Source: Candidatus Omnitrophota bacterium (GTDB lineage: Bacteria > Omnitrophota > Gorgyraeia > Gygaellales > Profunditerraquicolaceae). From it: a DNA stretch of 64,000 nt. The notes under the pieces are model-generated. The model saw nothing but the letters and a program-made list of their open reading frames with translations, did no database searches and had not been told where the DNA came from. Each line of letters begins with the position of its first letter. Position 1 is the first letter of the stretch. The DNA lies in the NCBI GenBank assembly GCA_025453395.1, contig JALOQK010000001.1, forward strand, positions 10,244-74,243. Reading direction: 5' to 3'. Made by a program: the position numbers and the translations under genes. Positions 3,529-48,066 of this stretch are shown piece after piece.

Positions 3529-3548
3529 TTGACCTTTCCTTTTAGAAA

Positions 3549-7026: not shown

Positions 7027-7031
7027 AATAC

Positions 7032-7406: not shown

Positions 7407-7422
7407 AAAATTATCCCCTTTC

Positions 7423-25960: not shown

Positions 25961-27350
25961 CTTGTTTGTAGCCTAAAGAAATAAGGTTATACGGATCAAA
26001 TACCTTATCTATCAATTGCTTCCCCAGTTTCTCCTCAAGAAACAAGCGCAGGTCTTCTTTCGCGGATTTTCTGAATTCATCAAGAAGCGCTTGCGCTCTA
26101 TCGTAACCGATATAAGGCAATAAAGCGGTAACAATCGCCGGGCTTCTGTTAAAATACCAGAGGCATTTTTCCGGATTGGCGATTATCCCGGAGGCGTGCG
26201 CGGCAAATATACGGTTTGTATTGATTAAAACATCCAGCGACTCAAGCAATGCCTGAGCAATAGAGGGCATAAACTCATTTATCTGCAGGCTTCCTGAAGA
26301 ACAGGATTGAGTGATAATAAGGTCATTAGCAATAACTTTCATCCCGGCTTGCGCAACTACTTCCAAGATCACCGGATTAATTTTCCCCGGCATAATTGAA
26401 GAGCCGGCTTGCGCTTTGGCTAGAGAAATCTCTCCCAAAAGATTCAACAAGCGCAGGTCATGGGAAATTTTTATTAAATTTGAAGCATGGGCTTTTAATA
26501 TTCCGGAAACCTCCACAAAGCTATCGCTGTTGGCGGTCTGGTCAAGCACTGTCTCGCCTCTTGCCAAGCCAAGGCCGGTCGCCTGGCGCAGGGTTTCTAT
26601 GACTAAGAAAATATAACTGCGCGGCGCGGTTAAACCTGTGCCTACCGCGGTCCCGCCGATATTAACCAAACGCAAGCGCTCTTCGCATTTAAAAGCCCTC
26701 CAGCGGTCGCGGGCAACAGCCTCGCTAAAGGCGCTAAATTCCAAACCCAAAGTTATGGGAACAGCTTCCTGTAATTCGGTCCGGCCGATTTTAACAACCT
26801 TAGCGAATTCCTTTTCTTTTTTCTGAAAAACTCCCTGAAGCCCGGCGATCTGTGCGCTTAATTCCCGGAATTTAAAGATAGCCGCAATCTTTAAAGCTGT
26901 AGGATATGTGTCGTTGGTAGATTGATTGAGATTAACGTCCTGGATCGGATTGACCAAAGTATAATCGCCAATTTTTCCGCCCAAGATTTCAATCGCGCGA
27001 TTAGCCAAAACTTCGTTCACATTCATATTGGTAGATGTTCCGGAGCCGCCTTGCAAAGCATCAACCGGAAAGGATTCAATAAATTTCCCCTCTGCAATTT
27101 CATCGCAAGCCTGAATGATCGCGCCAGCTTTTTGATCATCCAGAAGTTTTAATTCGCGATTTGCCTGGGCGCAGGCTTTTTTCACCAGGCAATAAGCCTT
27201 GATCAAGGAAAAATTTACTTTTTGCCCGGTAAGCGGGAAATTCTCCAGCGCCCTTTGAGTATGGATTCCCCAATAAACACCTGAGGCGATTTTCATTTCA
27301 CCAAGCGAATCTTTTTCTCTGCGATATTCCATATTCACCTTTAAAAACAC
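25944..27350 (-). CDS. aspartate ammonia-lyase / fumarase class II family protein (hydrogenase-maturation-associated AspA-like)
   Basis: 468 aa; GSSIMPGKINP signature; overlaps hydF and hydG by 17 and 10 nt. Confidence 0.75.
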   Translation of the reverse strand: MFLKVNMEYRREKDSLGEMKIASGVYWGIHTQRALENFPLTGQKVNFSLIKAYCLVKKACAQANRELKLLDDQKAGAIIQACDEIAEGKFIESFPVDALQGGSGTSTNMNVNEVLANRAIEILGGKIGDYTLVNPIQDVNLNQSTNDTYPTALKIAAIFKFRELSAQIAGLQGVFQKKEKEFAKVVKIGRTELQEAVPITLGLEFSAFSEAVARDRWRAFKCEERLRLVNIGGTAVGTGLTAPRSYIFLVIETLRQATGLGLARGETVLDQTANSDSFVEVSGILKAHASNLIKISHDLRLLNLLGEISLAKAQAGSSIMPGKINPVILEVVAQAGMKVIANDLIITQSCSSGSLQINEFMPSIAQALLESLDVLINTNRIFAAHASGIIANPEKCLWYFNRSPAIVTALLPYIGYDRAQALLDEFRKSAKEDLRLFLEEKLGKQLIDKVFDPYNLISLGYKQDEKNS

Positions 27351-28849
27351 AAGTCGCGCTCGCCGTTTTTTATCCGGCGGTGATATTCTTTAAAAGAATT
27401 TAAAATACTGGAAGAAAAATCAGCCGGCACCCTTTTTTCAATTTCGGCGATTTCACGGGCAATCAATCCTTCACCCATCTTCCTGGTATCATCGCTTGCA
27501 AAATCTTCCAGCCATTCCTGAAAAGTCAAAACCGCGTTCAATTTACACAAACACCCCTCTTTGCCGCTTTTTAACATACCCATAATATTATCCCCGGTTC
27601 TTCCGCAGCGGTAACCGGCAGTGCAAAAAGAAGTAATATATCCCATTGACGCCAGATCGCAGATCACCTCATCAAGCGAGCGGCTGTCGCCTAAAATAAA
27701 CTGCTGGATATTTTCCTCCTGCGTGTCCCCGCGTTCGCTGTAGGCTCCGATACCGACTTTGGAAGAAGCATCACGCTGGGTGCACATGGCTATAACTTCC
27801 CGCATCACTGAAGGGTTTTCCCTGCAGGTAACAATCATTCCGGCATAAGGTATAGACAGCCTCAACACTGCGACTAATTTCTTAAAATCTTCATCGCTGA
27901 CCAAGTACCCGGTATTTTTGACAAAAGGGGTATTTGCCGCCGGCTCAAGCCTGGGGAAAGACACGGTGTGCGGGCCAATACCAAAAAAACTTTCCAGGTC
28001 GCGGGCATGAGAAAGTAATCCCATTACTTCAAAGCGCCAATCATAAAGCCCAAACAGCGCTCCGATAGCCACATCATCAATTCCGGCTTCCATTGCCCGG
28101 TGCAAACTATAAAGCCGCCAGAGGTAATCGCCTTTTATGGTCTGCGCGGGATGCACCAGGCTATAAGTCTGGCGATGATAAGTCTCCTGAAAGATCTGGA
28201 AAGTCCCTATCCCCGCGGCTTTGACCTGTTTATAATCTGCGATACTCATAGAAGCGGCATTGACATTTACCCTGCGGATAGCCCCCTCGCCGCGGCGGGC
28301 CTTGACTTTTACCGCGTAAATCTGGCGCATTACTTCACAGATATAATCCGCTCCCGACGCAGGATGCTCACCAAAAACCACAATCAGCCTCTTATGCCCC
28401 AGATTTCCAGCAAGCACTTCTGCTTCTTTGCGCACTTCATCAAGGCTTAATCTCCTGCGCTTAATAACCTGATTCTCCCCGCGAAACCCGCAATAGGCGC
28501 AATTATTCACGCACAAGCTTGAGCAGTAAAGCGGCGCGAAAGTCACTATCCGGTTGTCGTAAACTTTTCTTTTGATGCGCGCGGCAGCCTGGAATATCTG
28601 TTCCCATAAATCTTGGCCTTGCACATTAAGCAAAGCCGCAGTTTCCGCCAACTCAAGTGTCTGAACATCCAAAGCTTTCTGGATAATATCCCGTATCTTG
28701 CCAGGGTCAACATTCCGCTTGGCTTCCAACAAACGCGCAATCTGCGGTTCGTCTATAAAACACCTGCCGCCTTTAAGATATTTGGCGTTCTCTTCTTCCC
28801 TGATCACTTCTTTCTTCCAATTCTTAGCTTGTTCCAGAATATTCTGCAT
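27341..28849 (-). CDS. hydG: [FeFe]-hydrogenase maturase HydG (ThiH-like radical SAM tyrosine lyase)
   Basis: 502 aa; CVNNCAYCGF radical-SAM motif; GHKRL; C-terminal extra Cys cluster (CTAGYRC...GCLC). Confidence 0.7.
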   Translation of the reverse strand: MQNILEQAKNWKKEVIREEENAKYLKGGRCFIDEPQIARLLEAKRNVDPGKIRDIIQKALDVQTLELAETAALLNVQGQDLWEQIFQAAARIKRKVYDNRIVTFAPLYCSSLCVNNCAYCGFRGENQVIKRRRLSLDEVRKEAEVLAGNLGHKRLIVVFGEHPASGADYICEVMRQIYAVKVKARRGEGAIRRVNVNAASMSIADYKQVKAAGIGTFQIFQETYHRQTYSLVHPAQTIKGDYLWRLYSLHRAMEAGIDDVAIGALFGLYDWRFEVMGLLSHARDLESFFGIGPHTVSFPRLEPAANTPFVKNTGYLVSDEDFKKLVAVLRLSIPYAGMIVTCRENPSVMREVIAMCTQRDASSKVGIGAYSERGDTQEENIQQFILGDSRSLDEVICDLASMGYITSFCTAGYRCGRTGDNIMGMLKSGKEGCLCKLNAVLTFQEWLEDFASDDTRKMGEGLIAREIAEIEKRVPADFSSSILNSFKEYHRRIKNGERDLCF

Positions 28850-34784: not shown

Positions 34785-36239
34785 TTAACCCTTAATTACC
34801 CCTAACGGACGCATCCTGCAGACGCGTTTCGCCAAACCTGCCTCATGCACCACGCGCACCACATCATTCACATCCTTATACGCCGCAGGAGCTTCCTCCA
34901 CAATTGTGTCGCGCCCTGAAGCCTTTACAATTATACCCTTGGATTGCAAATCTTTCAATAGGATATCTTTATTTATTAAACGCAAGGCAGATGTGCGGGA
35001 TTTGACTCTACCCGCGCCATGACAAGCAGAGCCAAAGGTTTCGTCCATGGCTTTTTGCGTGCCGAACAAAAGATATGAATTTCTCCCCATATCACCGGGA
35101 ATAATTACCGGCTGGCCAAACTGGCGGTATTTATCCGGCAAGGCGGGATGCCCCGGGCCAAAGGCGCGGGTGGCGCCCTTTCTATGCACACATAAAGCTT
35201 TCTGCTCTTTTCCAACCATGTGTTTCTCTATTTTAGCGATATTATGCGCCACATCATAAAGCAAACGCATGCCTAATTTCTCCCAAGATTTACTAAAGAC
35301 GCGCGCGAAAACTTCCCGGGACAAATGCATCAAACACTGACGATTCGCCCAAGCGTAATTTGCCGCGCATTTCATTGCTCCTAAATAAGCCTTGCCTTCT
35401 TGAGAGTTAACCGGCGCGCAAGCAAGCTGGCGGTCCGGAACAGTAATGGAATATTTTTGCATGCAACCGACCATTTCTCTGGCATAATCATCGCAGATTT
35501 GATAACCAAACCCCCGCGATCCAGAATGAATCATCACAGTTACCTGCCCCAAACGCAATTCCAGCGCGTCGCAAATTTCGCGGTCATAAAGCTGGTCAAT
35601 TACCTGCACTTCCAAAAAATGATTTCCTGAACCCAATGTCCCGGACTGCGATTGCCCTCGTTTATAGGCCTTCTCTGAGACCATATCAGGAAGCGCGCCT
35701 TGCATACATCCGTTTTCTTCAGTATAAATTAAATCCTCATCTATGCCAAAACCCCTTTTCACCGCCCAACCCGCGCCCTTAAGTAATATTTCTTTTTCTT
35801 CTCTGGCGCTTAAGCGGATATCACCTTCAGAGCCCACCCCTGATGGAATATCAGAAAACAAAGCATAGACTAAAGTTTCGAGTTTATCTTTAACTTCATC
35901 ATAATCAAGGTACGTAGTCAAAAGCCTGATGCCGCAATTTATATCATACCCTACCCCTCCGGGAGAAATAACTCCTGCTTCTTCCGGGTCGGTTGCCGCC
36001 ACCCCTCCGATCGGAAAGCCAAAACCCCAGTGTATATCCGGCATGGCCAAAGACGCTCTAACAATCCCCGGCAAGAACGCCACATTTGCCACCTGTTGGA
36101 CAGCTTTATCCTGCAAAATATCCTTAAGAAGTTTTTCATCCGCGTAAATAATGCCCGGCACGCGCATGCCGCCAGTTTTAGGAACGCGCCAGCGAAAATC
36201 GTCAATTTTCTCTAATTTTATTTCAGACATCAAAGACAA
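34785..36239 (-). CDS. rtcB: RtcB-family RNA 3'-phosphate ligase
   Basis: 484 aa; conserved SGNHFLEVQ, His/Cys metal ligands, C-terminal GRV. Confidence 0.85.
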   Translation of the reverse strand: MSLMSEIKLEKIDDFRWRVPKTGGMRVPGIIYADEKLLKDILQDKAVQQVANVAFLPGIVRASLAMPDIHWGFGFPIGGVAATDPEEAGVISPGGVGYDINCGIRLLTTYLDYDEVKDKLETLVYALFSDIPSGVGSEGDIRLSAREEKEILLKGAGWAVKRGFGIDEDLIYTEENGCMQGALPDMVSEKAYKRGQSQSGTLGSGNHFLEVQVIDQLYDREICDALELRLGQVTVMIHSGSRGFGYQICDDYAREMVGCMQKYSITVPDRQLACAPVNSQEGKAYLGAMKCAANYAWANRQCLMHLSREVFARVFSKSWEKLGMRLLYDVAHNIAKIEKHMVGKEQKALCVHRKGATRAFGPGHPALPDKYRQFGQPVIIPGDMGRNSYLLFGTQKAMDETFGSACHGAGRVKSRTSALRLINKDILLKDLQSKGIIVKASGRDTIVEEAPAAYKDVNDVVRVVHEAGLAKRVCRMRPLGVIKG

Positions 36240-36645
36240 CCTGGGCCTGGTAACCGCGCGGGGTTTGGGAAAGCTTAAGTTCGTGGTAGGTAGCAGCTTT
36301 TATTTCAGTATTAACTTTATAATGATTCATATCTACGCCCACAGCAACAGCATCTATGAATTTGTCACTTACCTGATTGATCTTAAAATCCTCAAAAACC
36401 ATTGATTCCGTCTGCGACAAATACAATAATTGATTCAGCCAATTCACTAAAAGCTCTTCAGCGTTAGCGCCTTTTTGCATCACAACCATTTGATGGCTTT
36501 CTGTTTTAGAGGGATTGACTTTTTGAGCAGAAATATCAAAAAGCGCCAAGCCAGCATTACGGAAAAGGCCAGATAAGTCTTTTGCCTGCACCCGCATGCC
36601 GATATCTGCGGTATGATCTAAGATCTGGTAAAAATCTTTTCCCAT
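36223..36645 (-). CDS. archease (RtcB activator)
   Basis: 140 aa; DHTADIGMRV signature; overlaps the rtcB start. Confidence 0.75.
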   Translation of the reverse strand: MGKDFYQILDHTADIGMRVQAKDLSGLFRNAGLALFDISAQKVNPSKTESHQMVVMQKGANAEELLVNWLNQLLYLSQTESMVFEDFKINQVSDKFIDAVAVGVDMNHYKVNTEIKAATYHELKLSQTPRGYQAQVVFDV

Positions 36646-36653
36646 AGGATAAC

Positions 36654-38435
36654 TTATCTGGAATAAACCGGCCGCGCGCAGTAATGGGTATGCAGAAGCT
36701 CTTCGGATTTCTCGCCTAATGGCTTTTCCAGAAACTCCTCGTATAATTTTTTAACCGCCGGATTCTCATGGGACTTGCGGATAGGCTTATTTTTATCTTC
36801 CTCGTAAATAGCCTGCATTCTTTTCTGGCGCACTTCTGTATTAGTGGGCAAAGGCTGGCCGCCTCCGCCGATACACCCGCCGGGGCAGGTCATAATCTCA
36901 ATAAAAGCATATGGAGACTTTCCGGATTTTATTTCATCAAGCAATACGCGCGCTTTGCTTAAAGAACTTGCCACCGCCACTTTTATTTTTAAGCCATCAA
37001 TATCCACTTCCGCGGTTTTGATTCCATCTAAACCGCGCAAATTCTCAAAGTCTAGTTTTTCAAGCGTTTTTCCTGTTAACACTTCATAGGCGGTGCGCAG
37101 CGCCGCCTCCATAACTCCGCCGGTTGCGCCGAAAATTACTGCCGCGCCGGTTGAAACTCCCAGAGGTTCATCAAAATTCTCATCTTTTAATTCATTAAAA
37201 CATATCCCCGCCTCTTGTATCATGCGCGCGGCCTCGCGGGTAGTTAAAACATAATCCACGTCAAAAAACGCCTCTTCATCCTTAAGTTTCATCTTATCTT
37301 TCCAATATAAAAAGGCGCTTTTCATTTCCGCTCGCTTGGCCTCAAATTTCTTGGCAGTGCAGGGCATAATAGAAACTACCACAATATTTCTGGGGTCAAC
37401 GCCCATCTTTTGGGCGTAATAAGTCTTGGCAATTGCCCCGAACATCTGCTGGGGAGATTTACAGCTTGATACGTGTTTTAAGGCCTCAGGATAAAAATGC
37501 TCGGCAAACTTAATCCAGCCTGGCGAGCAGGAAGTAATCATCGGCAAAACACCTTTATGCTTAATGCGCTCAATCAACTCAAAACCTTCCTCCATAATGG
37601 TAAGATCGGCGCTAAACTGCGTATCAAAAACCTTATTGAATCCCATACGGCGAAGCGCGGCTGCCATTTTGCCGGTAGCCAAACTCCCCGCAGGCATGCC
37701 GAATTCCTCGCCTATGGAAGCGCGCACTGCCGGAGCAGTTTCCACTAAAACTATTTTTTTAGGGTCTGACAGATCCCGCCATACATTTTCAATCGCGCTT
37801 TGCTCAATAATCGCGCCGGTTGGACAAACCAATAAACATTGCCCGCAGTTAATACATTCAACATTGCCCAGGCCCATCTCCATAAAAGTTGAAACGTAGC
37901 TTAACTTACCGCGGTGTATAGTATCAATGGCATTTACCGACTGCACTTTAGAGCAGACCGCGATACAACGCCGGCACAAAATACATTTATCCGCGTCACG
38001 GATCAGAGAAGGAGAAGTCTTATCTACTGTAATGCCGGATTTAAGCGCCTTGACAAAAGGGGCATCTCTGACCCCCATATCATGCGCCAGGCGGCGCAAT
38101 TCGCAATGCTGATTGCGGTCGCAAAAAAAACAATCTTCAGGATGAGACGCAAGCAGCAATTCCAGATTTGTCTTGCGCGCGCGGCGCACACGCTGGCTGT
38201 TAGTAAGAATCTCCATGCCGTTGTTTACCGCGGTAACACATGAGCGCAAAAGCGTCTTTGCCCCCTTTACTTCCACGACACAAATAGAACAGCTGGCCTC
38301 TTCACTTATACCTTCAAGATAACAAAGCGTCGGGATGACAATCCCGGCGCTTCTGCAGGCTGCAAGTATCGTTGAGCCCTGAGGAACCTCTATATCTTTT
38401 CCGTCAATTTTTATGCGCACATTATTTTCCGGCAT
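36654..38435 (-). CDS. hydA: [FeFe] hydrogenase catalytic subunit HydA (M3 architecture: 2Fe-2S + accessory 4Fe-4S domains + H-domain)
   Basis: 593 aa. Motif L2 MPCTAKKFE and L3 EIMTCPGGCIGGGGQP are canonical. L1 reads ITSCSPGW (tgc tcg on the coding strand) instead of TSCCPGW. Confidence 0.85.
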   Translation of the reverse strand: MPENNVRIKIDGKDIEVPQGSTILAACRSAGIVIPTLCYLEGISEEASCSICVVEVKGAKTLLRSCVTAVNNGMEILTNSQRVRRARKTNLELLLASHPEDCFFCDRNQHCELRRLAHDMGVRDAPFVKALKSGITVDKTSPSLIRDADKCILCRRCIAVCSKVQSVNAIDTIHRGKLSYVSTFMEMGLGNVECINCGQCLLVCPTGAIIEQSAIENVWRDLSDPKKIVLVETAPAVRASIGEEFGMPAGSLATGKMAAALRRMGFNKVFDTQFSADLTIMEEGFELIERIKHKGVLPMITSCSPGWIKFAEHFYPEALKHVSSCKSPQQMFGAIAKTYYAQKMGVDPRNIVVVSIMPCTAKKFEAKRAEMKSAFLYWKDKMKLKDEEAFFDVDYVLTTREAARMIQEAGICFNELKDENFDEPLGVSTGAAVIFGATGGVMEAALRTAYEVLTGKTLEKLDFENLRGLDGIKTAEVDIDGLKIKVAVASSLSKARVLLDEIKSGKSPYAFIEIMTCPGGCIGGGGQPLPTNTEVRQKRMQAIYEEDKNKPIRKSHENPAVKKLYEEFLEKPLGEKSEELLHTHYCARPVYSR

Positions 38436-38449: not shown

Positions 38450-41400
38450 TTATTCAATAAGCGCTTCCTCTTTCACGTCGCAACGCAGGCAACGCGAAGC
38501 TTCAATATCAACCTGTTTTCTTGATAATCCTTGCGAAACTTCCTTAAAATTACAAAGGCGTGATCCGACCGGGAGAAACTTTCCGGATTGTTTGGACTGT
38601 CTTGCCGGCTTAAGAGGAACTTTATTCCTGTATTCATGCTTTTTAAATAACTTAATAAACCTATCCTTACCGGTTAACTCTTTATCAATTACCTGCGCCG
38701 CTTTCTTGCCATAACCCATGGCTTCAACCGCGGTAGAAGGCCCGGTAACCAAATCCCCTCCCGCGTAATAACCGCTTACGTTGGCCTTGAGGGTAAAACC
38801 ATCAATCTTGACCGTGCCGTTTTTATTAAGATTGATCCCGCTTTCCCTGATAAATTCCGAATCCACGCGCTCGCCGATAGCCACCATCACCGTATCGCAG
38901 GGGATCTGGTAAGTTTCATTAGTTGCCTCGGGGATTTTTCTGCCCGCAAAGTCATAGCCTCCGGGCAGCATCTTAACAACTTCAAGCGCCTTTACCTTTT
39001 TTTGCGCATCAGCCAATATCGCCTTGGGAGAAGCAAGAAAAACAAATTTAATGCCCTCAGCTTCGGCCTCTCTTATCTCGTCTTTATTCGCTGGCATATC
39101 CTGCTTTTCTCTGCGGTAAACAACCGTAACTTTTGCGCCCAGCCTCCAGGCGGTGCGCGCGGCATCAATAGCGGCGTTACCAGCCCCGATAATCAAAACT
39201 TCCTTTCCGATGTCAATTTTCTTGCCTAGAAGAACTTCTTCCAGGAAATGCGTAGCCGAATAAACACCCGGGAATTCTTCTCCGGGGATCTGCAAAAACA
39301 TGCTTTGGTAAGAACCGGTTGCCAAAAATACCGCATCGTAATCCTGCCTTATTTGTTTAAGCCTTTCAGAATTTACTTTCTTATTAAAAACAAATTTTAC
39401 TCCCAGCTTTTTAATAAAGCCTAATTCCTTGGCAAGGATCTTTTTGGGCAGGCGATACTCAGGTATCCCGTAACGCAAAATACCGCCTGGTTGGGATTTT
39501 TCTTCGAAGACAACTACTTCGTGGCCTAAGCGCACAAGATAAAAAGCTGCGGTAAAACCTGCGGGGCCGGCTCCGATGACCGCAACTTTCTTGCCGGTCT
39601 TAGGCATTTTCTCCTTGATAAAACGCCTCAGGACTTCAGGTTCTTTCTTTAGCTTATACACCTGGTCCGCGACAAATCTGTGCACTTCGCCTTGAGAAAC
39701 TGGCTGGTCAAGGTCTTCCCTGCGACAACGCATCTTGCAATGGAAATGACAAATCCTGCCTGAAGAAGAGGGTATGGGATTATCCCGGTAGATCAGGTCA
39801 AAAGCATCTAAAAGCCTGTCTTCTTTTATAAGTTCCAGGAAACCGGGGATATTCATATGCAAAGGGCAGCTGTTTTCGCAAGGAGAAAGAAAAAGCGTCT
39901 TACACACGCCTGCATCGCAATGTTTTCCCTGAATATGTTCAAGATATTCATTGCGGAAATATTTCATAGTAGTTAATATTGGATTTGGCCCGGTCTGGCC
40001 AAGCCCGCAGAGGGCGGTATCTTTAATTACCTCGCCTAAACTTTCCAGCTGCAACAATTGCCCAAGATTTGCTTTACCCTCAGCAATAGCATTCAAGGTA
40101 TTAAGCGACTGATATAGGCCTTCACGGCAGGGAGTGCATTTTCCGCAAGATTCAGAAGTAGTAAACTCGGTAAAATAACGCGCTACATCCACCATGCAAT
40201 TGTCATCGTCCATAACCACCATCCCGCCTGAACCCATAATCGCGCCAAGCGCATTTAAGGATTCATAGTCTACAGGGGTCTTAAATAATTCTACAGGGAT
40301 ACATCCTCCGGAAGGGCCTCCGGTCTGCACAGCTTTGACTTTTTTCTTAGTCCCGGTACCTTGCCCGATATTATAGATTAACGTAAGAAGAGATTCGCCT
40401 AAAGCAAGCTCAACTAATCCGGTATTTTTTATTTTCCCCACCAAAGAAAAGACTTTTGTGCCTGAGCTTTTTTCTGTGCCGGTCTGGTTAAACCAGCTTC
40501 CGCCTTTGGCGATGATCGCCGGAATGTTACAGTATGTTTCCACATTATTGATATTTGTAGGCTTATTCCAAATCCCCTTTTGGGCGGGAAACGGCGGACG
40601 CGGACACGGCATGCCTCTTCTTCCTTCAATAGAAGCAATAAGCGCAGTTTCTTCGCCGCAGACAAAGGCCCCTGCCCCCTCAACAAGATGTATATCAAAG
40701 CAAAAATTACTGCCTAAAATGTTTTTCCCCAAAAACCCGTATTCCTGCGCTTGAAGGATAGCTTTCTGCAAACGCTCAACCGCAAGAGGATATTCCGCGC
40801 GGATATAAATAATGCCTTCATTTCCGCCCATGGCAAAGGCTGCGATAAGCATGCCTTCAATAAGCATATGCGGGTCGCTTTCAATTTCATTGCGATTCAT
40901 ATATGCTCCGGGATCGCCCTCATCAGCATTGCAGACAATATATTTCTTGTCCGCTTTTTCCTGTTTCATTAACTCCCATTTTCTCCCTGTAGGAAAACCC
41001 GCGCCTCCTCTGCCGCGAAGCTTTGACAACTTTACTTCTTCTATGACTTGTTCTGGCGACATACCGTTTATAACCTTAGCAATACTGCTATATCCGCCAA
41101 CAGCAATATACTCTTGGATATCTTCGGGATTAATCAGGCCGCAATCTCGCAAGACGATTTTTTTCTGCCATTTAAAGAAATCTACTTGATTCCATAAAGG
41201 TATCGCATCCAACCCTTGCCCATAAGTAATCTGGCCGGTTAAGTGATCCCATTTCTCTATACGGCAAAGGGCTTTTTTCTCCGGAATATTGCCACGGGAA
41301 ACAGCATCAAGTATTGCCTTAACATCTTTGGTTGTGACTTTCTGAAGAATAACAAGCGGATTTCCCGGAATAGCGATATTTACCAATGGCTCATTCACGC

Positions 41401-41605
41401 AAAAACCAAAACAACCTACCTTGGTAAGATTAATCTTGAGTTTTCTTTTAGTAATGCCACTAGCAAATGCTTTATAGACCTGGTCCGCGCCGTTACCTAT
41501 GCCACAGGTACCTAAACCCACGGCAATGCGCGGCCTGTCAGTAAAGATTTTACTCAAACCCTTTTCTCTGACCACTTGCAAATCATTCAGATTCATAATC
41601 TTCAT
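38450..41605 (-). CDS. NuoF-like (51-kDa, FMN/NADH) flavoprotein fused to a GltD-like FAD/NAD(P)H oxidoreductase domain; hydrogenase diaphorase subunit
   Basis: 1051 aa. The N-terminal region has a thioredoxin-like segment plus GRGGAGFPTGRKW FMN site and 4Fe-4S Cys clusters. The C-terminal ~450 aa have two dinucleotide folds (VAVIGAGPAGFTAA; VLIIGAGNAAIDAA), typical of glutamate synthase small-subunit-like reductases. Confidence 0.75.
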   Translation of the reverse strand: MKIMNLNDLQVVREKGLSKIFTDRPRIAVGLGTCGIGNGADQVYKAFASGITKRKLKINLTKVGCFGFCVNEPLVNIAIPGNPLVILQKVTTKDVKAILDAVSRGNIPEKKALCRIEKWDHLTGQITYGQGLDAIPLWNQVDFFKWQKKIVLRDCGLINPEDIQEYIAVGGYSSIAKVINGMSPEQVIEEVKLSKLRGRGGAGFPTGRKWELMKQEKADKKYIVCNADEGDPGAYMNRNEIESDPHMLIEGMLIAAFAMGGNEGIIYIRAEYPLAVERLQKAILQAQEYGFLGKNILGSNFCFDIHLVEGAGAFVCGEETALIASIEGRRGMPCPRPPFPAQKGIWNKPTNINNVETYCNIPAIIAKGGSWFNQTGTEKSSGTKVFSLVGKIKNTGLVELALGESLLTLIYNIGQGTGTKKKVKAVQTGGPSGGCIPVELFKTPVDYESLNALGAIMGSGGMVVMDDDNCMVDVARYFTEFTTSESCGKCTPCREGLYQSLNTLNAIAEGKANLGQLLQLESLGEVIKDTALCGLGQTGPNPILTTMKYFRNEYLEHIQGKHCDAGVCKTLFLSPCENSCPLHMNIPGFLELIKEDRLLDAFDLIYRDNPIPSSSGRICHFHCKMRCRREDLDQPVSQGEVHRFVADQVYKLKKEPEVLRRFIKEKMPKTGKKVAVIGAGPAGFTAAFYLVRLGHEVVVFEEKSQPGGILRYGIPEYRLPKKILAKELGFIKKLGVKFVFNKKVNSERLKQIRQDYDAVFLATGSYQSMFLQIPGEEFPGVYSATHFLEEVLLGKKIDIGKEVLIIGAGNAAIDAARTAWRLGAKVTVVYRREKQDMPANKDEIREAEAEGIKFVFLASPKAILADAQKKVKALEVVKMLPGGYDFAGRKIPEATNETYQIPCDTVMVAIGERVDSEFIRESGINLNKNGTVKIDGFTLKANVSGYYAGGDLVTGPSTAVEAMGYGKKAAQVIDKELTGKDRFIKLFKKHEYRNKVPLKPARQSKQSGKFLPVGSRLCNFKEVSQGLSRKQVDIEASRCLRCDVKEEALIE

Positions 41606-42126
41606 TTTTTCTTCTTTCGGGCAATCCCTTGCACGATCTGACGTAATTTACTTTCAGTCATATGGCCGTAGATAACTCCATCCACCTCTACAACCGGCGC
41701 CAACGCGCACTGGCCAAAACAAGCCACTGTCCTTAAGGTAAATTTATTGTCCGCAGTAGTTAAAAATAGCTTCTCGCCCTGATGATGGCCCTCTTCTTTC
41801 AGGCCTAGAAGCTGTTTAAGATATTCCAGAATATTTTTTGAGCGTCGGGTATGGCAGGCAGTGCCGCGGCAGATAATAATAGTATGGTCGCCTTGGGGCT
41901 TAAGATTAAAAAAAGCGTAAAAAGTAACTACCCCGTAGATTTTGGCAAGAGGGATATTGGTTTTTTGAGAAATGTATTCTAATGTTTCCTGAGGAAGATA
42001 CTTGTGGCAATTTAGCTGCTGGACTTCTTCTAATATGCCCAAAAGCGCTCCGGGATTCGAGCCATATTTAGCAATTACCCGGTCTATCTTTTTGGTATGG
42101 TTACTTTGCGTGGACATTTCCGCCAT
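41602..42126 (-). CDS. NuoE-like [2Fe-2S] thioredoxin-fold subunit of the hydrogenase (HydC/HndA type)
   Basis: 174 aa; CRGTAC...CFGQCALAP Cys pattern. There is a 4-nt overlap with the downstream flavoprotein gene. Confidence 0.75.
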   Translation of the reverse strand: MAEMSTQSNHTKKIDRVIAKYGSNPGALLGILEEVQQLNCHKYLPQETLEYISQKTNIPLAKIYGVVTFYAFFNLKPQGDHTIIICRGTACHTRRSKNILEYLKQLLGLKEEGHHQGEKLFLTTADNKFTLRTVACFGQCALAPVVEVDGVIYGHMTESKLRQIVQGIARKKKK

Positions 42127-42253: not shown

Positions 42254-42326
42254 TGGGCCATGCGGGAGTCGAACCTGCGACCTTGACATTAAGAGTGTCC
42301 TGCTCTACCAATTGAGCTAATGGCCC
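42254..42326 (-). tRNA. tRNA-Lys (anticodon CTT)
   Basis: Manual fold. Acceptor GGGCCAT/ATGGCCC+A; D-arm GCTCAATTGGTAGAGC; anticodon loop CTCTTAA gives CTT; T-arm GCAGGTTCGACTCCCGC with one mismatch. Confidence 0.7.
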
Positions 42327-42458: not shown

Positions 42459-43871
42459 TTAATCCACTATCTGATATTCCTCTGCTCTCTTGTGAAGCAA
42501 TCGGTTTATTTCGGGGACAATAACGCCTGCGTCTAAATTCTTGGCAATAAACATGGCCATATCCAAGCAGTGATCCACATTATAGTAATCTGACATACCA
42601 AGCCTTCCTGTATATATTATATTCTCAATAGAATTTAATTCTTTAAAAATCTTATCTTTTTTCTCCTGAAAACCAAGCTCATACACAGGATAAAAAGCCG
42701 GAATCCTGACTAAACAGCTATCCAGGACCTGATTCTTATTTACAATCTTTAAGCCCTCTAACCCCTTAACGCAAAGCGCCAGGATTTCTCCATCTGGTTT
42801 CTTAAAAAGGCCGCTTTTTACTTCGCTTGTAAAATCACAGCAGATAACTGTCTTATCTTCAGGAAAACCCTTGGTCGAAATAAGCTTTTGCTCTGAGATG
42901 CGCGAAAAAACAAGCTCCTTATCCGGACAGAAAACCCAATGATCATTCAAACAACTTGGCTTATCTATTAGAAAATAAGCGATCATACTGTGGCGCATCT
43001 TCAAAAAGTTATCTTCTTGGTTAATTTTCCTATCATCAGGAAATAATAAAGAAGTAACCTCATTTAAAGGAATAGAAGAAACCAGCATATCACAGTCTAT
43101 GGCCTGTTTATTATCAAATACAACTGTCTTTATTCTCTTCTCCTCCATGATAAATTTAACCGGTTTCTGGCACGTGCGGATTATATGACCCGACCTTAGA
43201 AGATTGTTAGCTAAGCCATCACAAACCTGGTAAAAACCTTCCTGAGGGTAAAAAAAGTGGCTGGCGTCAGTAAACTTACTTTCCTTCTTTATATTTAAGA
43301 GGCGAAAAACAAGGTCGTACATATTCCTGACAGGAATTCTTTTCTTGGCAATCTGGGCGCTTAACTCTTTTGGATCTCCCCAGACTTTATACGCTAACGG
43401 TAAGAAAACCGTCTGGTAAATCTTATTGCCAAAGATATTCTTACAGTATTCTTCATAGGTAGAAGCTTCTTTCAAGAATGGCGTGCGCAGAAGTGTAAGC
43501 AATACTGAAATACTTAAATGGATAACTTCTATTGGGTTAAAAACCTTAACCAATTGCACCAATTTCACCGGATAATCCATCAATTTCCCGCGCAGAATAA
43601 TCTTATGCTTCTTTTCTACTGTCTTAAGCGTGCTATTTGAAATCTTCATAAATTCATCCATGATCCCCGGGATAACAGAATAAACCTTGTGCGGACCGTA
43701 ATCAAGTTTTATGCCTTTAAAATCATAATACCCGCACAATCCCCCCAGCCTATTTTCCTTCTCGCAAAGAACAATATCATACTTATTCAGTTTAGACAAT
43801 TCCCACGCGGCAGTTAAACCGCTTATACCGCCTCCTAAAACAATAACCTTTTGCTTATTTTTATTATTCAT
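42459..43871 (-). CDS. FAD-dependent oxidoreductase, UDP-galactopyranose-mutase (Glf)-like
   Basis: N-terminal VIVLGGGISGLTAA FAD fold; C-terminal YTGRLG-x-Y-x-Y-x-x-DMA resembles the Glf GRLGxYxYxDMD motif. The ATG at 43871 is preferred because the ORF-track start at 43886 is TTG. Confidence 0.5.
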   Translation of the reverse strand: MNNKNKQKVIVLGGGISGLTAAWELSKLNKYDIVLCEKENRLGGLCGYYDFKGIKLDYGPHKVYSVIPGIMDEFMKISNSTLKTVEKKHKIILRGKLMDYPVKLVQLVKVFNPIEVIHLSISVLLTLLRTPFLKEASTYEEYCKNIFGNKIYQTVFLPLAYKVWGDPKELSAQIAKKRIPVRNMYDLVFRLLNIKKESKFTDASHFFYPQEGFYQVCDGLANNLLRSGHIIRTCQKPVKFIMEEKRIKTVVFDNKQAIDCDMLVSSIPLNEVTSLLFPDDRKINQEDNFLKMRHSMIAYFLIDKPSCLNDHWVFCPDKELVFSRISEQKLISTKGFPEDKTVICCDFTSEVKSGLFKKPDGEILALCVKGLEGLKIVNKNQVLDSCLVRIPAFYPVYELGFQEKKDKIFKELNSIENIIYTGRLGMSDYYNVDHCLDMAMFIAKNLDAGVIVPEINRLLHKRAEEYQIVD

Positions 43872-44829
43872 CTTTTTTCCGGGCAATCATTAAATATTGA
43901 CTGGCAAAATAAGGCAGAAGCATTTCTTTAATGGGCATAAACGCATACGGAAACCTTGCAATCTTGGCCAAAGGCTTAGAATACACTTCCAAACGGCTGG
44001 CTAAATAATCATAGCTTAATTTTTGAAAGTGCATTTTATGGGAGATTCTTTTGAAACCATGCTTATCCAAATATGCCGTAAGCGTTTTAGGCGTAAAATA
44101 ATAAAGGTGCACCGAAAGTAAAAACCACCAATGCCTTCCTGAAAGACGCGCCAAGAAATCATCTATGCGCGGATAATTAATCACCAAAAGCCCCCCGGGT
44201 TTTAATATCCGATTTATTTCTTTTAGTGTTTCACCCGGAGAAGCAACATGCTCTAAAACATCCCACAAGGTAACAATATCAAAACTTTTATCCGGCAATT
44301 TCGCTTCTTCTAATACCCCGCAAAACATCTTAACAGCGTAATTCTTCCTGGCAAATTCACACAGCCACTTGGAAGGCTCTACCCCTAAAGCATCATACCC
44401 GGCATCCCGGGCAACCCTGACAAAAATCCCGGAAGCCGCCCCCACATCCAATAAATTTCCTGACCTGCACAAACCTTGAATGGCTTTAAGGCAGTTCTTA
44501 AACGTTTGACTTCTGCCTTTTTCCTGCGAAACATACTGCTTATCCTCAGCCAAAGAATAGCTTTTAACGATTAATTCCTGTTTTGCCCGAGGCGAAAGAT
44601 AAATCAAGCCGCATTTCTTACAGCGCACGGCCTGCTCAAAGAATATCTGGCTGCTCGCGGAGGAATAGATCTTTAACAACTCATCTTTTGCCTTGGGAAT
44701 CTTTGTTGGGTCTGAAGCAAAAATAACTTCGCTTTCCAAAGAAGAACTGCCGCAAAAGTCACACGGCACATCTTCATAGAGATCAAGAGAGAAGTGCTTA
44801 TTTTCTAAAGGTCTGGTAGCCATAGGCAA
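43864..44829 (-). CDS. class I SAM-dependent methyltransferase with N-terminal zinc ribbon
   Basis: CDFCGS...CKKCG ribbon; motif I LLDVGAASGIF; 321 aa. Confidence 0.7.
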   Translation of the reverse strand: MPMATRPLENKHFSLDLYEDVPCDFCGSSSLESEVIFASDPTKIPKAKDELLKIYSSASSQIFFEQAVRCKKCGLIYLSPRAKQELIVKSYSLAEDKQYVSQEKGRSQTFKNCLKAIQGLCRSGNLLDVGAASGIFVRVARDAGYDALGVEPSKWLCEFARKNYAVKMFCGVLEEAKLPDKSFDIVTLWDVLEHVASPGETLKEINRILKPGGLLVINYPRIDDFLARLSGRHWWFLLSVHLYYFTPKTLTAYLDKHGFKRISHKMHFQKLSYDYLASRLEVYSKPLAKIARFPYAFMPIKEMLLPYFASQYLMIARKKDE

Positions 44830-46159
44830 AATCTACGAACAATCTTCCCTGAATACTTGATTTAAATAGTTTCTTGATCAAGAAACTAGGCCTTAAATAA
44901 AAACGCCTGTGAAAATCATTATAATAAAAATTAAGCTTATCCCAACTAAGCGTATCATGCTGGTATATTTGGCTGGGATTGTGAAAATTATAACAGGCCC
45001 AATCTTGCGTCTTTATAAGGCCCTGCTGCTTATACTCATCGTAAATGCTTGTCCCGGGAAAAGGCACCATAATAGTTGCCTTGGCAAAATCGGGGTTTAG
45101 TCTTATGGCAAAGTCTATTGTCTTGTTAATGCTTCTTTCAGTTTCACCCGGAAACCCCAGCATAAAAAACCCCACCAACTCAAGGCCTGCTTTCTTAATC
45201 ATTCGGCTTGCGCGAAATGCCTGCTCTATTGTAATGCCTTTATTGATCTTATCAAGCATTTCCTGACAGCCGCTTTCAAACCCCACGCCCACCTGATAAC
45301 ATCCGGCTTTCCTGGCAAGCTTCAAGAATTCATCATCGATGCGATCTACCCTTACACCTGTTCTTAAATTCCAAGTCATATTGATATTGCTTCTAATAAT
45401 TGCCTCGCAGATTTCTTTTGCTTTACTAATATCAGTAGTAAATTGATCATCCAAAACATGAAATTCCCGATACCCCAGCTTCTTTAAGATAAATAGCTCC
45501 TCAACAACCCTCTTGGCAGACTTGATCCGGAATTTCCTGCCATGCACTGTCTTGTTACAAAAAGTGCAATTAAAAACACAGCCCCTGCTCATTTCTATGG
45601 GCCCCACGGGATTATTTCTGGCAATCATCCCGGGACAGGAATAGTTATTTATGTCAAACAAATGCAAAGCAGGAAACGGCAGATCCTCTATCGGCAATTC
45701 GCCGCCCTTCTCTATTATCTTGGAAACTTTCTGGCCTCGCGCTATTTTCTTGATAATCTGTTCGCCTTCGCCAACAACTGCAATATCAAAAGAGGATTCT
45801 CTCAAAACCTCTTGGGGAAGCGAAGAAGCGTGCGGCCCGCCTATAATTGTAAGGATATTTCTCGATACAGACTTGGCAATCTGACTTATTCTTGAGGCTT
45901 CGTAGAAAAGCGGCGTGGTTGAAGTAACCCCGACCATATCAGGCTCAAAATCCAGGATCCTGCTTCTGACTTGCTGCCAGATATCGTTTGCGCAAAAAGC
46001 GGATAAATCAATTATGCTTACATCTATTCCCTCTTCAATAAGGCTGGCGGCGATCATTGCCAAAGACATAACCGGCAATCTGGGAACAGCAGCCCTTATC
46101 TTGGATTTACTGTAAACACTAACCGAGCTGGGAGGATTAAATAAAATACATTTCTTCAT
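44798..46159 (-). CDS. B12-binding radical SAM protein (class B)
   Basis: N-terminal cobalamin-binding fold (ILFNPP...VSIIDL); radical SAM CVFNCTFCNK; 453 aa. Confidence 0.75.
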   Translation of the reverse strand: MKKCILFNPPSSVSVYSKSKIRAAVPRLPVMSLAMIAASLIEEGIDVSIIDLSAFCANDIWQQVRSRILDFEPDMVGVTSTTPLFYEASRISQIAKSVSRNILTIIGGPHASSLPQEVLRESSFDIAVVGEGEQIIKKIARGQKVSKIIEKGGELPIEDLPFPALHLFDINNYSCPGMIARNNPVGPIEMSRGCVFNCTFCNKTVHGRKFRIKSAKRVVEELFILKKLGYREFHVLDDQFTTDISKAKEICEAIIRSNINMTWNLRTGVRVDRIDDEFLKLARKAGCYQVGVGFESGCQEMLDKINKGITIEQAFRASRMIKKAGLELVGFFMLGFPGETERSINKTIDFAIRLNPDFAKATIMVPFPGTSIYDEYKQQGLIKTQDWACYNFHNPSQIYQHDTLSWDKLNFYYNDFHRRFYLRPSFLIKKLFKSSIQGRLFVDFAYGYQTFRK

Positions 46160-48066
46160 TTTAATATGTCAAACCAAACCAGTTTCCCGTCCTTATCAAA
46201 ATAACCGATACTATGCGCGATAATCAAAAAGCCCTCGTCGTAAAATCTTGGCCTTTTTGCCCCAATAATCTTCCCAAAAACAACTATATCCCTGTCTTCG
46301 ACCCTTTGGGCGATCCTCTGGGTAAAGCCGGGAAAAATGATCTTATTCTCGATGTATACGGCTCTTGGGAAAGGCAAAGGTTTTAGGGCCCAATATTCCG
46401 GATGATGCTCTGCCATACCCTGGCCAGGCCCAAGATAAAAAGCATGAAAACTTCTATAGCGCAAAGGATAATAACAATACGCTGCGTCAACTCTCTCAAA
46501 AGAAGGCTGCGGCCACATTATATGTATTGTCCGCATATCCGTAGGGGTTAAAATTTCACCCAGATGGCCAAATTTTTGCCTTATCTGGTCTTCTGTAACC
46601 TCAAAGCGCCTTGTATCTTTACCTGATAAATTCGCCAACCTTAAAAAAAGGGGAATCGCTATTAAACACGCAAAGAATATAATATACAGCTTGATTATTT
46701 GAGGATAAAAAGTCTTTGGCGTAAATCCAAACTCTGCTTTAACATTTTTCTTGCCCTGGAAGCCTTCAAACAGAACAAATACCCCTGCTGCCAGCAGGCA
46801 ATACATAACAATCTCCAAGGACATCCATTCACGGTCTCCTCCCATGCCGCCGTTAAATAATAATGATAATAACATCCCGGCAAAATATAAAATTATGAAT
46901 ATGCGCTGATGCCTTGGCGCAAAAAATAAAATACGCAATAATCCAATTACGGCAAAAACATTGAAGAATAATCTATTCTTCAATAATAAAATAACCAATG
47001 CCGCGATAAATAATATCGCCTTGCCCCTCTTGGCTTTTAAAGAAAACAATTGCTTGATCCTTTCCCGGTCGTAAAAATACAAAAGAAGAATCAGGAATAT
47101 GCATGCCACAAAATACGCTCCGCCCGTTTTTTCATTGCTAAAAGCGCCGAAGATGTCTCTTGCGAAGAATTTAAAGGTCCACCTTAAACCCTCAAGCAAA
47201 TTTTCCGGATGCTCAACTGCTTGCTTTAGCGCCCCCAAATACAAGGCCTTCACCATGCCGGGGTTATCGTTTTGGATATAAGAAATAGCTACGTTTTTAT
47301 CCGAATAGATATCCGATGTAAACCCTGTTCCGCGATGCGCCTGCTGCCAGATCCTTATTGCAAAAACCTCGTTTGATTCAGTAGTGCAATAAAACTTAAC
47401 TGAAAAAAGATAAAAACTTATCCCCATAAAAACTGATAAGACAGCAACTAGCGTGAGTTTCAGCGATTTCTTGGAAAAGCCGTTTAAGAAAACCGGGAAC
47501 AAGGCAACTGTTACAAGCGACAGGAAATCCCAAGGCCTTATGGTTTGCGCTAAGGCAATAAAAAAACACGCCATAAAATAATGATTTAGAGAAAAATCAT
47601 GGAAACTTCTTATTATTAAAGCAAAGGCTATAACTAAAAGCGGCTGGGCCAGAACCTCTGTGGCAAGGCTTAACTGTAAAGGCGCATTCCACATGGCAAG
47701 AAACGACAAAAATACTACTATAAATATATTATTACGCAGATCCTTTAAAAGATAAAAAGCAGTCAAGAAACTTGCTATATTTAAGAATATAAAAAAGGCT
47801 GAATATAAAACATAATTATATTTAAACAAGAATCCCAGGATTGTTAAAACTAGCGGGAATATCGGCCTGCCGGGCAGCTTAATTCCATCAACGATATCCT
47901 TTGCGCAATCAAGCCATAACAAGGCGTCATTAATAGGATGCAGCCCCATCCTGAAAACGCCAATCTGATAATTACCGGCTGTCGGCAGAAGGATCATTAA
48001 ACGAAAAGAAACAAGCGCCAATATTAAAACCAGGCAAAATAAGATAAAGCGTTTGCTCATAAGCAA
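46156..48066 (-). CDS. large polytopic membrane protein (≥12 TM) with C-terminal soluble domain; GT-C-like glycosyltransferase candidate
   Basis: 636 aa, hydrophobic N-terminal 450 aa. No specific family recognised. It overlaps the rSAM start by 4 nt. Confidence 0.4.
   Translation of the reverse strand: MLMSKRFILFCLVLILALVSFRLMILLPTAGNYQIGVFRMGLHPINDALLWLDCAKDIVDGIKLPGRPIFPLVLTILGFLFKYNYVLYSAFFIFLNIASFLTAFYLLKDLRNNIFIVVFLSFLAMWNAPLQLSLATEVLAQPLLVIAFALIIRSFHDFSLNHYFMACFFIALAQTIRPWDFLSLVTVALFPVFLNGFSKKSLKLTLVAVLSVFMGISFYLFSVKFYCTTESNEVFAIRIWQQAHRGTGFTSDIYSDKNVAISYIQNDNPGMVKALYLGALKQAVEHPENLLEGLRWTFKFFARDIFGAFSNEKTGGAYFVACIFLILLLYFYDRERIKQLFSLKAKRGKAILFIAALVILLLKNRLFFNVFAVIGLLRILFFAPRHQRIFIILYFAGMLLSLLFNGGMGGDREWMSLEIVMYCLLAAGVFVLFEGFQGKKNVKAEFGFTPKTFYPQIIKLYIIFFACLIAIPLFLRLANLSGKDTRRFEVTEDQIRQKFGHLGEILTPTDMRTIHIMWPQPSFERVDAAYCYYPLRYRSFHAFYLGPGQGMAEHHPEYWALKPLPFPRAVYIENKIIFPGFTQRIAQRVEDRDIVVFGKIIGAKRPRFYDEGFLIIAHSIGYFDKDGKLVWFDILK

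Follow-up and report, generated by a model that had tools for sequence, protein, structure and literature searches.

The closest known counterpart of the hydrogenase considered here is HydA1 of Acetobacterium woodii, in which Ser301 is described as a ligand of the H-cluster [4Fe-4S] subcluster; this enzyme is active and gives a normal FTIR signature (Katsyv et al. 2023, PMC10021017). The HydABC(D) complex to which it belongs is highly active and shows the canonical FTIR states Hox, Hred, HoxH and Hhyd (PMC10021017). According to Kertess et al. (2017, PMC5855289), about 20% of sequences have Ser at this ligand position. The same chemical change was engineered in Chlamydomonas reinhardtii HydA1, where C115S replaces the second Cys of motif L1, beside the relay Cys114 (PMC5855289). 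The C115S protein lost most of its [4Fe-4S] cluster, failed to incorporate the 2Fe subcluster and showed no activity (Kertess et al. 2017, PMC5855289). The motif TSCSPGW has also been described in another uncultured lineage, in the trimeric NuoE/NuoF-type operons of the Melainabacteria ACD20 ‘confurcating’ hydrogenases (Di Rienzi et al. 2013, PMC3787301). The ACD20 enzymes were annotated from the genome only, with a change in motif 3 reported as well, and their likeness to the present system is by description (PMC3787301).

We identified a gene for an [FeFe] hydrogenase catalytic subunit in the window, the whole 64-kb stretch of Omnitrophota DNA that was analysed (Table 1). The predicted HydA contained the Pfam domains Fer2_4, NADH-G_4Fe-4S_3, Fer4_7, Fe_hyd_lg_C (PF02906, E=2.6e-97) and Fe_hyd_SSU (PF02256, E=1.4e-27). 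It scored 880.9 bits against NCBIfam NF040763 (‘NADH-dependent [FeFe] hydrogenase, group A6’; cut-off 765). Its best PDB match was 7q4v_A (E=6e-199), the HydA1 of the electron-bifurcating HydABC(D) of A. woodii (PDB 7Q4V/7Q4W/8A5E), which has the same M3 architecture and 54.5% identity.

Table 1. Features of the hyd locus, by position in the window.
Feature	Position	Strand	Basis
hydF, H-cluster maturation GTPase	24704..25960	-	NCBIfam TIGR03918, 525 bits vs cut-off 326
aspartate ammonia-lyase-like gene, flanked by hydF and hydG	25944..27350	-	NCBIfam NF008909, 561 bits vs cut-off 510
hydG, H-cluster radical SAM maturase	27341..28849	-	NCBIfam TIGR03955, 437 bits vs cut-off 312
hydA, catalytic subunit of an M3-type group A [FeFe] hydrogenase, 593 aa	36654..38435	-	Pfam, NCBIfam and PDB matches
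HydA motif L3 EIMTCPGGCIGGGGQP (M515, ligand C517, bridging C521)	36852..36899	-	ORF translation, alignment
HydA motif L2 MPCTAKKFE (M357, ligand C359, K362)	37341..37367	-	ORF translation, alignment
HydA motif L1 TSCSPGW (T301-W307)	37515..37535	-	direct read; ungapped vs CpI TSCCPGW and A. woodii TSCSPGW
Ser304 codon TCG, [4Fe-4S]H ligand position (CpI Cys300, A. woodii Ser301)	37524..37526	-	
Cys303 codon TGC, proton-relay Cys (CpI Cys299)	37527..37529	-	
hydB variant, 1051 aa	38450..41605	-	Pfam Complex1_51K, NADH_4Fe-4S, Fer4_20, Pyr_redox_2
hydC, NuoE-like thioredoxin-like [2Fe-2S] subunit, 174 aa	41602..42126	-	Pfam 2Fe-2S_thioredx, E=2.4e-42

The plus strand at 37515..37541 reads ccagcctggcgagcaggaagtaatcat, and its reverse complement, ATG ATT ACT TCC TGC TCG CCA GGC TGG, encodes M-I-T-S-C-S-P-G-W, placing L1 in the context P-M-I-T-S-C303-S304-P-G-W. 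Positions 37524..37535 are exactly the codons of T301 (37535-37533), S302, C303 (37529-37527) and S304 (37526-37524). When HydA was aligned to Clostridium pasteurianum CpI, Thermoanaerobacter kivui HydA1 and A. woodii HydA1, the region around the motif was free of gaps, and a separate MAFFT alignment led to the same mapping, in which S304 corresponds to CpI C300 and A. woodii S301. As the two alignment methods gave identical ungapped mappings, a one-residue register shift relative to CpI that would restore the second Cys was ruled out. An earlier note on this DNA had read the motif as TSCSPGW instead of TSCCPGW, had assigned the roles of proton relay and [4Fe-4S]H ligand to the two adjacent positions, the ligand being Ser here, and had called motif L2 (MPCTAKKFE) and motif L3 intact; the direct read of the codons, the alignments and the translated hydA ORF confirmed all of these points. 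HydA carries the relay Cys303 and Ser304 at the ligand position exactly as the group A enzyme of 7Q4V does. It departs from the strict all-Cys textbook form of L1, a form that is not universal in the family (Ser in 18-20%).

The remaining catalytic residues were conserved. C359, C517 and C521 of HydA aligned to CpI C355, C499 and C503, and motifs L2 and L3 fit the patterns MPCxxKxxE and ExMxCxxGCxxGGGQP. Alignment also showed that the CpI proton-pathway residues E279, E282, R286 and S319, and the CpI 2Fe-pocket residues P231, M353, K358, F417, M497 and Q325, are all identical in HydA. CpI S232 is Ala in HydA, as it is in the A. woodii and T. kivui enzymes. The relay Cys (the position of C303) was invariant across all 106 representatives that keep a relay Cys. 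When every Cys column of the H-domain was examined, no compensating extra Cys specific to the Ser class was found; the sole extra Cys, C325 (in SSCKSP), was equally frequent in the Cys class, and C412 was unique to this HydA.

Conservation of the Ser was determined among close and distant homologues. Of the 120 closest clusters, which are 68-100% identical to HydA, 119 had TSCSP[GA]W, in answer to the earlier note's proposal to look for a shared TSCSP in orthologues. In a set of 150 cluster representatives (50% identity), Cys was followed by Ser in 23 and by a second Cys in 102 (18% Ser), in agreement with the ‘about 20%’ of PMC5855289. The Ser was encoded by all six codons (TCC, TCT, TCG, TCA, AGC and AGT) in 35 other genomes, including that of the cultured isolate Ancylomarina longa; this variety of codons points to selection at the amino-acid level. 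An NJ tree (BLOSUM62) was computed from 135 H-domains after masking of the Ser/Cys column. It required about 19 parsimony changes and split the Ser sequences into 13 separate clades, although the number of independent Cys/Ser switches is unreliable in a tree made without ML or bootstrap. On this tree the Ser state was not monophyletic. Judging from these sequences, the Ser state is a clade trait near this HydA and is also scattered elsewhere, and we claim nothing further. When covarying sites were sought by mutual information, the only positions to stand out were CpI F296 and the x of PxW, both of them confounded by phylogeny. The HydA residue at the former site, four upstream of the ligand position, is Ile, and at the level of clades Ser is associated with replacement of this Phe by Ile, Val or Leu. 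This association provides a cheap, testable second-site hypothesis.

S304 is thus a genuine natural variant that is conserved and was known before, with examples that include an active enzyme with a solved structure, and the possible novelty suggested for it earlier did not hold, as the variant had been described in PMC10021017, PMC5855289 and PMC3787301. The analysis shows directly that the motif has Ser, that this Ser maps to the ligand position and is conserved, and that all other catalytic residues are intact. By analogy, we consider it highly probable that S304 is a genuine, selectively maintained Ser replacement of the first [4Fe-4S]H Cys ligand in a catalytically competent group A enzyme, with the Ser oxygen ligating the cubane. 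As in A. woodii HydA1, the hydroxyl or alkoxide oxygen of Ser304 would fill the fourth coordination site of the cubane, while the other three ligands would come from C359, C517 and the bridging C521. C303 would remain the proton relay to the azadithiolate bridge, via E283, S323, E286 and R290. HydG and HydF, both encoded within the window, would assemble the H-cluster, with HydE lying elsewhere, and electrons would reach the HydB/HydC module by way of the F-domain clusters. A direct Fe-O(Ser) bond, the activity of this enzyme and any effect that the O-donor may have in tuning the cluster potential are inferred. The precedent for the Fe-O(Ser) bond is a 3.4 Å cryo-EM map of a 54.5%-identical homologue, and at this resolution serinate ligation and a water-mediated contact are not strictly separable. 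The loss of both cluster and activity in CrHydA1 C115S means that only certain protein contexts accept Ser, and HydB is unlike that of A. woodii, so that the chemistry of the holoenzyme lies outside the reach of the precedent.

The strongest of the alternatives is that Ser304 is not bound to iron, the fourth ligand being solvent (OH-/H2O) or Cys303, in which case the relay would be lost and proton transfer or catalytic bias altered. Kertess et al. (PMC5855289) suggested that Cys114 might be a substitute ligand in CrHydA1 C115A and that such clusters can be completed by solvent; the modest resolution of the A. woodii map and the failure of C115S itself in CrHydA1 point the same way. However, the authors of 7Q4V modeled Ser301 as a ligand (PMC10021017), and the canonical FTIR states and normal activity of the A. 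woodii enzyme are hard to square with a lost relay Cys. Moreover, proteins of the Ser class strictly conserve both the relay Cys and the entire proton path. The hydroxyl itself is argued to matter because the conserved residue is Ser, written with six codons, rather than Ala or Gly. We therefore regard a non-ligating Ser304 as improbable.

Another possibility is that HydA is a non-catalytic, sensory or degenerate homologue like the enzymes of groups C and D. L1 deviations are typical of sensory groups, and two relatives with ~70% identity carry a C-terminal histidine-kinase tail. Against this, Pfam found no PAS or other sensor domain in the 593-aa HydA, and the relay Cys and proton path, which are altered in sensory groups, are intact; HydA accordingly lacks the signalling domain and the altered relay of the groups C/D, HydS-like proteins. 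The group A6 score is over its cut-off, the operon includes NuoF- and NuoE-like subunits with HydG and HydF encoded nearby, and the A. woodii enzyme with the identical motif is highly active. A sensory or degenerate role is thus very improbable. The earlier note had considered unusual cluster ligation or proton transfer of the kind reported for sensory or atypical groups. Unusual cluster ligation stands, in that Ser occupies the ligand position as in A. woodii, whereas the comparison with sensory or atypical groups does not: those groups alter the first (relay) Cys, as in the distant representatives that read TSSCP, TSWCP or TSGCP, and this HydA is a standard M3-type group A enzyme. The remaining alternative, a sequencing or assembly error hiding a Cys codon and a canonical TSCCPGW, which had been raised as a single G-to-C miscall, is effectively refuted: such a miscall is inapplicable because TCG is two base changes away from TGC or TGT, the 1782-nt hydA gene is identical in two other assemblies, one from JGI and one from Logan, Ser is found in 119 of 120 close homologues and in 35 other genomes with six different codons, and the characterised A. 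woodii HydA1 has the same motif.

The genes hydC, hydB and hydA are contiguous on the minus strand, and the NuoE-like HydC and NuoF-like HydB are those expected of a HydABC complex. HydB consists of an N-terminal domain and a NuoF-like FMN/NADH core with a [4Fe-4S] cluster, followed by a GltD/NfnB-like module with 2x[4Fe-4S], FAD and NADPH sites. In a PDB search, residues 26-572 matched NfnB/HydB chains and residues 573-1044 matched NfnA, StnC and NfnI-L; the motifs GAGPAG, GAGNAA and YRR were found at 678, 807 and 830. The C-terminal domain of canonical HydB carries clusters B3/B4 and is the proposed ferredoxin site. Motif and domain searches found no CX2CX2CX3CP motif in HydB, and the usual C-terminal ferredoxin-like domain, which carries two such motifs in canonical HydABC (T. 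maritima/A. woodii/T. kivui type), was absent. The holoenzyme was not filed as a canonical HydABC because HydB after ~572 is GltD-like, with Fer4_20 and Pyr_redox_2 domains. The fusion is widespread in Omnitrophota and Margulisiibacteriota, where it is annotated only as ‘FAD-dependent oxidoreductase’. No description of it was found in the limited collection of literature searched. The HydB-GltD fusion is a more unusual feature than the Ser304 variant and may deserve separate follow-up. As a tentative and rather unlikely proposal, the Ser-ligated HydA of the Omnitrophota clade would serve as catalytic subunit in a so far uncharacterised class of [FeFe] hydrogenase complex, in which an NADPH-type GltD/NfnB module replaces the HydB ferredoxin domain; H2 might then be coupled to NAD(H) at FMN and to NADP(H) at FAD, instead of or besides ferredoxin, and the Ser ligand, together with an aliphatic residue in place of CpI F296, could adjust the [4Fe-4S]H potential to this chemistry.

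The maturase genes hydG and hydF lie on the same strand as the hyd operon. The aspartate ammonia-lyase-like gene between them also occurs within the hyd cluster of a relative. In relatives, hydF-hydG-hydE directly follow hydA; HydE was not found among the ORFs of the window. Scans around the hyd operon for a Rex operator, promoter or terminator gave nothing above chance.

The motif TSCSPxW calls for caution, as it signals neither a defect nor a miscall, and automated screening that insists on a ‘canonical TSCCPxW’ would raise false alarms for about one in five genuine [FeFe] hydrogenases. Natural enzymes with Ser are conserved and widespread and the one tested, that of A. woodii, is active, whereas the engineered Cys-to-Ser change kills Chlamydomonas HydA1. 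This contrast raises the question of which protein features make an O-ligand acceptable and how it affects the cluster potential.

Comparison with the known systems places the locus as follows. A. woodii HydA1 shares with this HydA the L1 decapeptide PMITSCSPGW, including Ser at the Cys-ligand position, as well as the L2/L3 ligands, the proton path and the S232A substitution, and the two proteins fall together in the NJ tree of H-domains. L3 differs, reading MTC...GCIGGGG here versus MAC...GCVNGGG in A. woodii. T. kivui HydA1 (PDB 8A6T; 53.4% identity) and CpI (PDB 4XDC and others; 43.8% identity) have the same fold and cluster set and conserved catalytic residues, but both have the canonical TSCCPxW with a Cys ligand and Phe, not Ile, four residues upstream; CrHydA1, with PMFTSCCPGW, also has Phe at this position. 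HydB of A. woodii is a 599-aa protein with a C-terminal 2x[4Fe-4S] ferredoxin-like domain, in contrast to the 1051-aa HydB described here, which has the GltD-like NADPH module instead. The N-terminal half of this HydB resembles NfnB of Nfn-Bfu (NfnABC, PDB 9N5U) and the ‘HoxF’ chain of Sporomusa Stn (PDB 8OH5), both with E about 1e-190; its C-terminal half resembles, at E about 1e-100, the GltD-like part of NfnA and StnC. In Nfn-Bfu and Stn, however, the GltD-like module is inserted in a HydA-like subunit that has no H-cluster, whereas at this locus the module is joined to the NuoF-like subunit, and the accompanying HydA is a complete hydrogenase.

The hydA product (HydA) contains Fer2_4, NADH-G_4Fe-4S_3, 2x[4Fe-4S] ferredoxin, Fe_hyd_lg_C (E=2.6e-97) and Fe_hyd_SSU Pfam domains. 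These make up the M3 architecture seen in group A [FeFe] hydrogenases of the clostridial and bifurcating kinds. HydA scored 880.9 bits against NCBIfam NF040763 ('NADH-dependent [FeFe] hydrogenase, group A6'; cut-off 765), and an identical protein from a Candidatus Omnitrophica MAG is recorded under the name of this family. We did not find hydE within the 64-kb window, and the 332-aa ORF adjoining hydF (23704..24702) matched no NCBIfam family. In a relative, the same aspartate-ammonia-lyase-like gene is again found among the hyd maturase genes. There was no Rex operator upstream of hydC in the window; a relative carries a Rex-like gene upstream of hydC. The 636-aa ORF at 46156..48066, which precedes the B12-binding radical SAM gene, was without a Pfam or NCBIfam match.

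Features of the hyd region, in window coordinates
Feature	Position	Strand	Remark
hydG, aspartate-ammonia-lyase-like gene, hydF	24704..28849	-	grouped, ~8 kb from hydA
archease and RtcB RNA ligase genes	34785..36645	-	directly after hydA; start 9 nt past hydA stop
hydA	36654..38435	-	593-aa ORF; Pfam and NCBIfam matches
Ile300 codon	37536..37538	-	four residues before Ser304; aligned to CpI F296
NuoF-like gene (hydB)	38450..41605	-	upstream of hydA, same strand
NuoE-like gene (hydC)	41602..42126	-	upstream of hydA, same strand
tRNA-Lys(CTT) gene	42254..42326	-	between hydC and flavin amine-oxidase-like gene
flavin amine-oxidase-like protein	42459..43886	-	in row upstream of hyd operon
SAM methyltransferase	43864..44829	-	in row upstream of hyd operon
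B12-binding radical SAM enzyme	44798..46159	-	in row upstream of hyd operon

The sequence of plus-strand positions 37515..37541 is ccagcctggcgagcaggaagtaatcat; its reverse complement, ATG ATT ACT TCC TGC TCG CCA GGC TGG, encodes M-I-T-S-C-S-P-G-W within the hydA ORF. Thus, TSCSPGW in H-cluster motif L1, as described in the earlier note, was borne out, and the interval that it named, 37524..37535, comprises exactly the codons T301-S302-C303-S304. L2 (MPCTAKKFE) and L3 (EIMTCPGGCIGGGGQP) were both present, as it had also stated. L1 aligned without gaps in phmmer alignments of HydA with the Clostridium pasteurianum hydrogenase (CpI), Thermoanaerobacter kivui HydA1 and Acetobacterium woodii HydA1. 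Residue equivalences were counted along these alignments and an independent MAFFT alignment of 135 H-domains; in both, C303 corresponds to the proton relay CpI C299, and S304 to the [4Fe-4S]H ligand CpI C300 and to A. woodii S301. Neither contained a register shift that would give back the second Cys. We conclude that Ser at the L1 ligand position is real, conserved and correctly located by the earlier note.

This substitution is a natural variant that is already documented, with structural and spectroscopic precedent. The best PDB match of HydA was A. woodii HydA1 (7q4v_A; E=6e-199, 54.5% identity), which has the same PMITSCSPGW sequence. In the A1 cluster of the A. woodii complex HydABC-Aw, one Cys ligand 'is replaced by a serine residue (Ser301Aw)' (Katsyv et al. 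2023, PMC10021017); the resolution of the anaerobic map was 3.4 Å. TSCSPGW was also recorded in Melainabacteria hydrogenases (Di Rienzi et al. 2013, PMC3787301). In Chlamydomonas reinhardtii HydA1 (CrHydA1) the ligand position is C115, adjoining relay C114, and the C115S, C115A and C115D mutations each led to loss of the cubane and of all activity (Kertess et al. 2017, PMC5855289).

HydA most likely has a standard H-cluster, with the cubane held by Ser304 (O), Cys359, Cys517 and bridging Cys521. By analogy with the A. woodii precedent, we infer that Ser304 forms a direct Fe-O bond and that HydA is active. From established iron-sulfur chemistry, an O-donor ligand is expected to stabilize the oxidized cubane and make its potential somewhat more negative, an effect that may matter in HydA. 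A search of the H-domain comparison for an extra Cys restricted to Ser-type sequences found none. It is improbable that solvent or Cys303 serves as the fourth ligand instead of Ser304, although this is the alternative to which we give most weight. The residues of the proton path (E283, E286, R290 and S323), the 2Fe pocket (P235, Q329, M357, K362, F435 and M515) and the remaining cluster ligands (C359, C517 and C521) are the same as in CpI, while CpI S232 is replaced by Ala, likewise in A. woodii and T. kivui. It is very unlikely that HydA is a sensory or degenerate protein. In the functional H-cluster that we favor, protons would reach the azadithiolate amine by way of R290-E286-S323-E283-(water)-C303, and electrons would leave to HydB/HydC through the F-domain clusters: two [4Fe-4S], the His-ligated [4Fe-4S] and the [2Fe-2S].

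We regard a sequencing error concealing a Cys codon as next to impossible, since the S304 codon is TCG, two changes from any Cys codon, the 1782-nt hydA gene is identical throughout in a JGI assembly and in the Logan assembly of SRR12684589, among the 120 protein clusters most similar to HydA (68-100% identity) 118 read TSCSPGW and one TSCSPAW, and Ser occurs in other species through both codon families. The single G-to-C miscall offered in the earlier note is ruled out because TCG to TGT or TGC takes two substitutions. In a survey of 54 motif-bearing loci from genomes of other species, 35 had Ser (TCC 11, TCT 10, TCG 5, AGC 5, AGT 3, TCA 1) and 19 had Cys. The Ser set included FCPU426, Armatimonadetes, many Clostridia and Peptococcaceae, Bacteroidales, Syntrophales, Zixiibacteriota, Selenomonadales and Desulfobotulus, as well as a cultured isolate, Ancylomarina longa. 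The use of both codon families shows selection on the amino acid; repeated Cys/Ser interchange also fits, AGY and TCY each being one step from TGY.

What remains of value is what makes Ser ligation tolerable, together with the adjoining, apparently undescribed HydB-GltD fusion. Among 150 representatives of 50%-identity clusters, 23 were Ser-type versus 102 Cys-type (18% Ser-type), and the seven closest representatives (47-63% identity) were all Ser-type. A rough NJ tree of H-domains, computed after masking of the Ser/Cys column, placed the HydA clade with A. woodii HydA1 and another homolog (P0122). Other Ser sequences were scattered among Cys ones, so that parsimony requires ~19 changes and Ser forms 13 maximal clades, in a tree too crude for counting events. 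At the CpI F296 position, 11 of 13 Ser clades had Ile, Val, Leu or Met, whereas 22 of 26 Cys clades had Phe (Fisher p=5e-5); at x of PxW, Gly occurred in 11 of 13 versus 12 of 26 (p=0.04). Both comparisons are confounded by shared ancestry. We hypothesize that, with a smaller residue at −4, the shorter Ser side chain may be able to contact the iron, a possible second-site accommodation. If so, Phe at this position in CrHydA1 (PMFTSCCPGW) would explain the failure of C115S. An Elusimicrobiota contig (L062) contains two tandem hyd sets with HydA genes at 1837..3618 and 6153..7898; the first encodes TSCSPGW after a GltD-type HydB and the second TTCCPSW after an ordinary 535-aa HydB, indicating that the Ser state follows a paralogous lineage.

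Two independent TSCSPGW-type HydA proteins ~70% identical to ours (P0087 and P0109) have a C-terminal histidine-kinase tail with an H-box-like SFVSHELK and HATPase_c. One such contig has the order HydC, HydB(GltD), HydA::HK, HydG, HydE, response regulator, small ORF, AspA-like lyase and HydF. Such a kinase fusion of a complete, catalytic-type hydrogenase may be an H2- or redox-sensing device. A predicted 4122-aa protein (P0121) has seven H-domains, six with identical motifs (TSCCASW, MPCTVKKTE and EIMMCEGGCMNGAGQ) spaced by exactly 444 residues; this probably reflects a tandem repeat that was wrongly assembled or gene-called.

HydB is 1051 aa long. Residues 26-572 matched NfnB/HydB chains in the PDB (including 9n5u_B, E=1.5e-191; 7q4v_B, E=8e-173), and residues 573-1044 matched the GltD-like parts of NfnA (9n5u_A), StnC (8oh5_C) and NfnI-L (5jca_L). 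HydB is a NuoF-like FMN/NADH core fused with a GltD/NfnB-like 2x[4Fe-4S]+FAD+NADPH module; FAD (GAGPAG at 678) and NADPH-type (GAGNAA at 807 and YRR at 830) signatures were present. CX2CX2CX3CP motifs are absent, and HydB accordingly lacks the ferredoxin-like B3/B4 domain of its canonical counterparts. This ~1045-1055-aa architecture is shared by at least 120 protein clusters, which come mainly from Omnitrophota and Margulisiibacteriota but also Bacteroidales and Deltaproteobacteria, and are annotated merely as 'FAD-dependent oxidoreductase' or 'NuoF'. For 30 of these clusters the length of the longest contig equals that recorded for a Ser-type HydA, which suggests that the two genes share contigs, and the fused hydB directly precedes hydA in two other loci (L003 and L063) and on the P0087 contig. 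Clostridia with Ser-type HydA have an ordinary 600-640-aa HydB, indicating that the fusion and the Ser state can be separated from each other. We do not class the holoenzyme as canonical bifurcating HydABC because the GltD module is in HydB, the B3/B4 domain is missing, and we found no description of a HydB-GltD fusion in the literature searched. In Nfn-Bfu and Stn the GltD-like module resides in a HydA-like subunit without an H-cluster, whereas here it resides in HydB.
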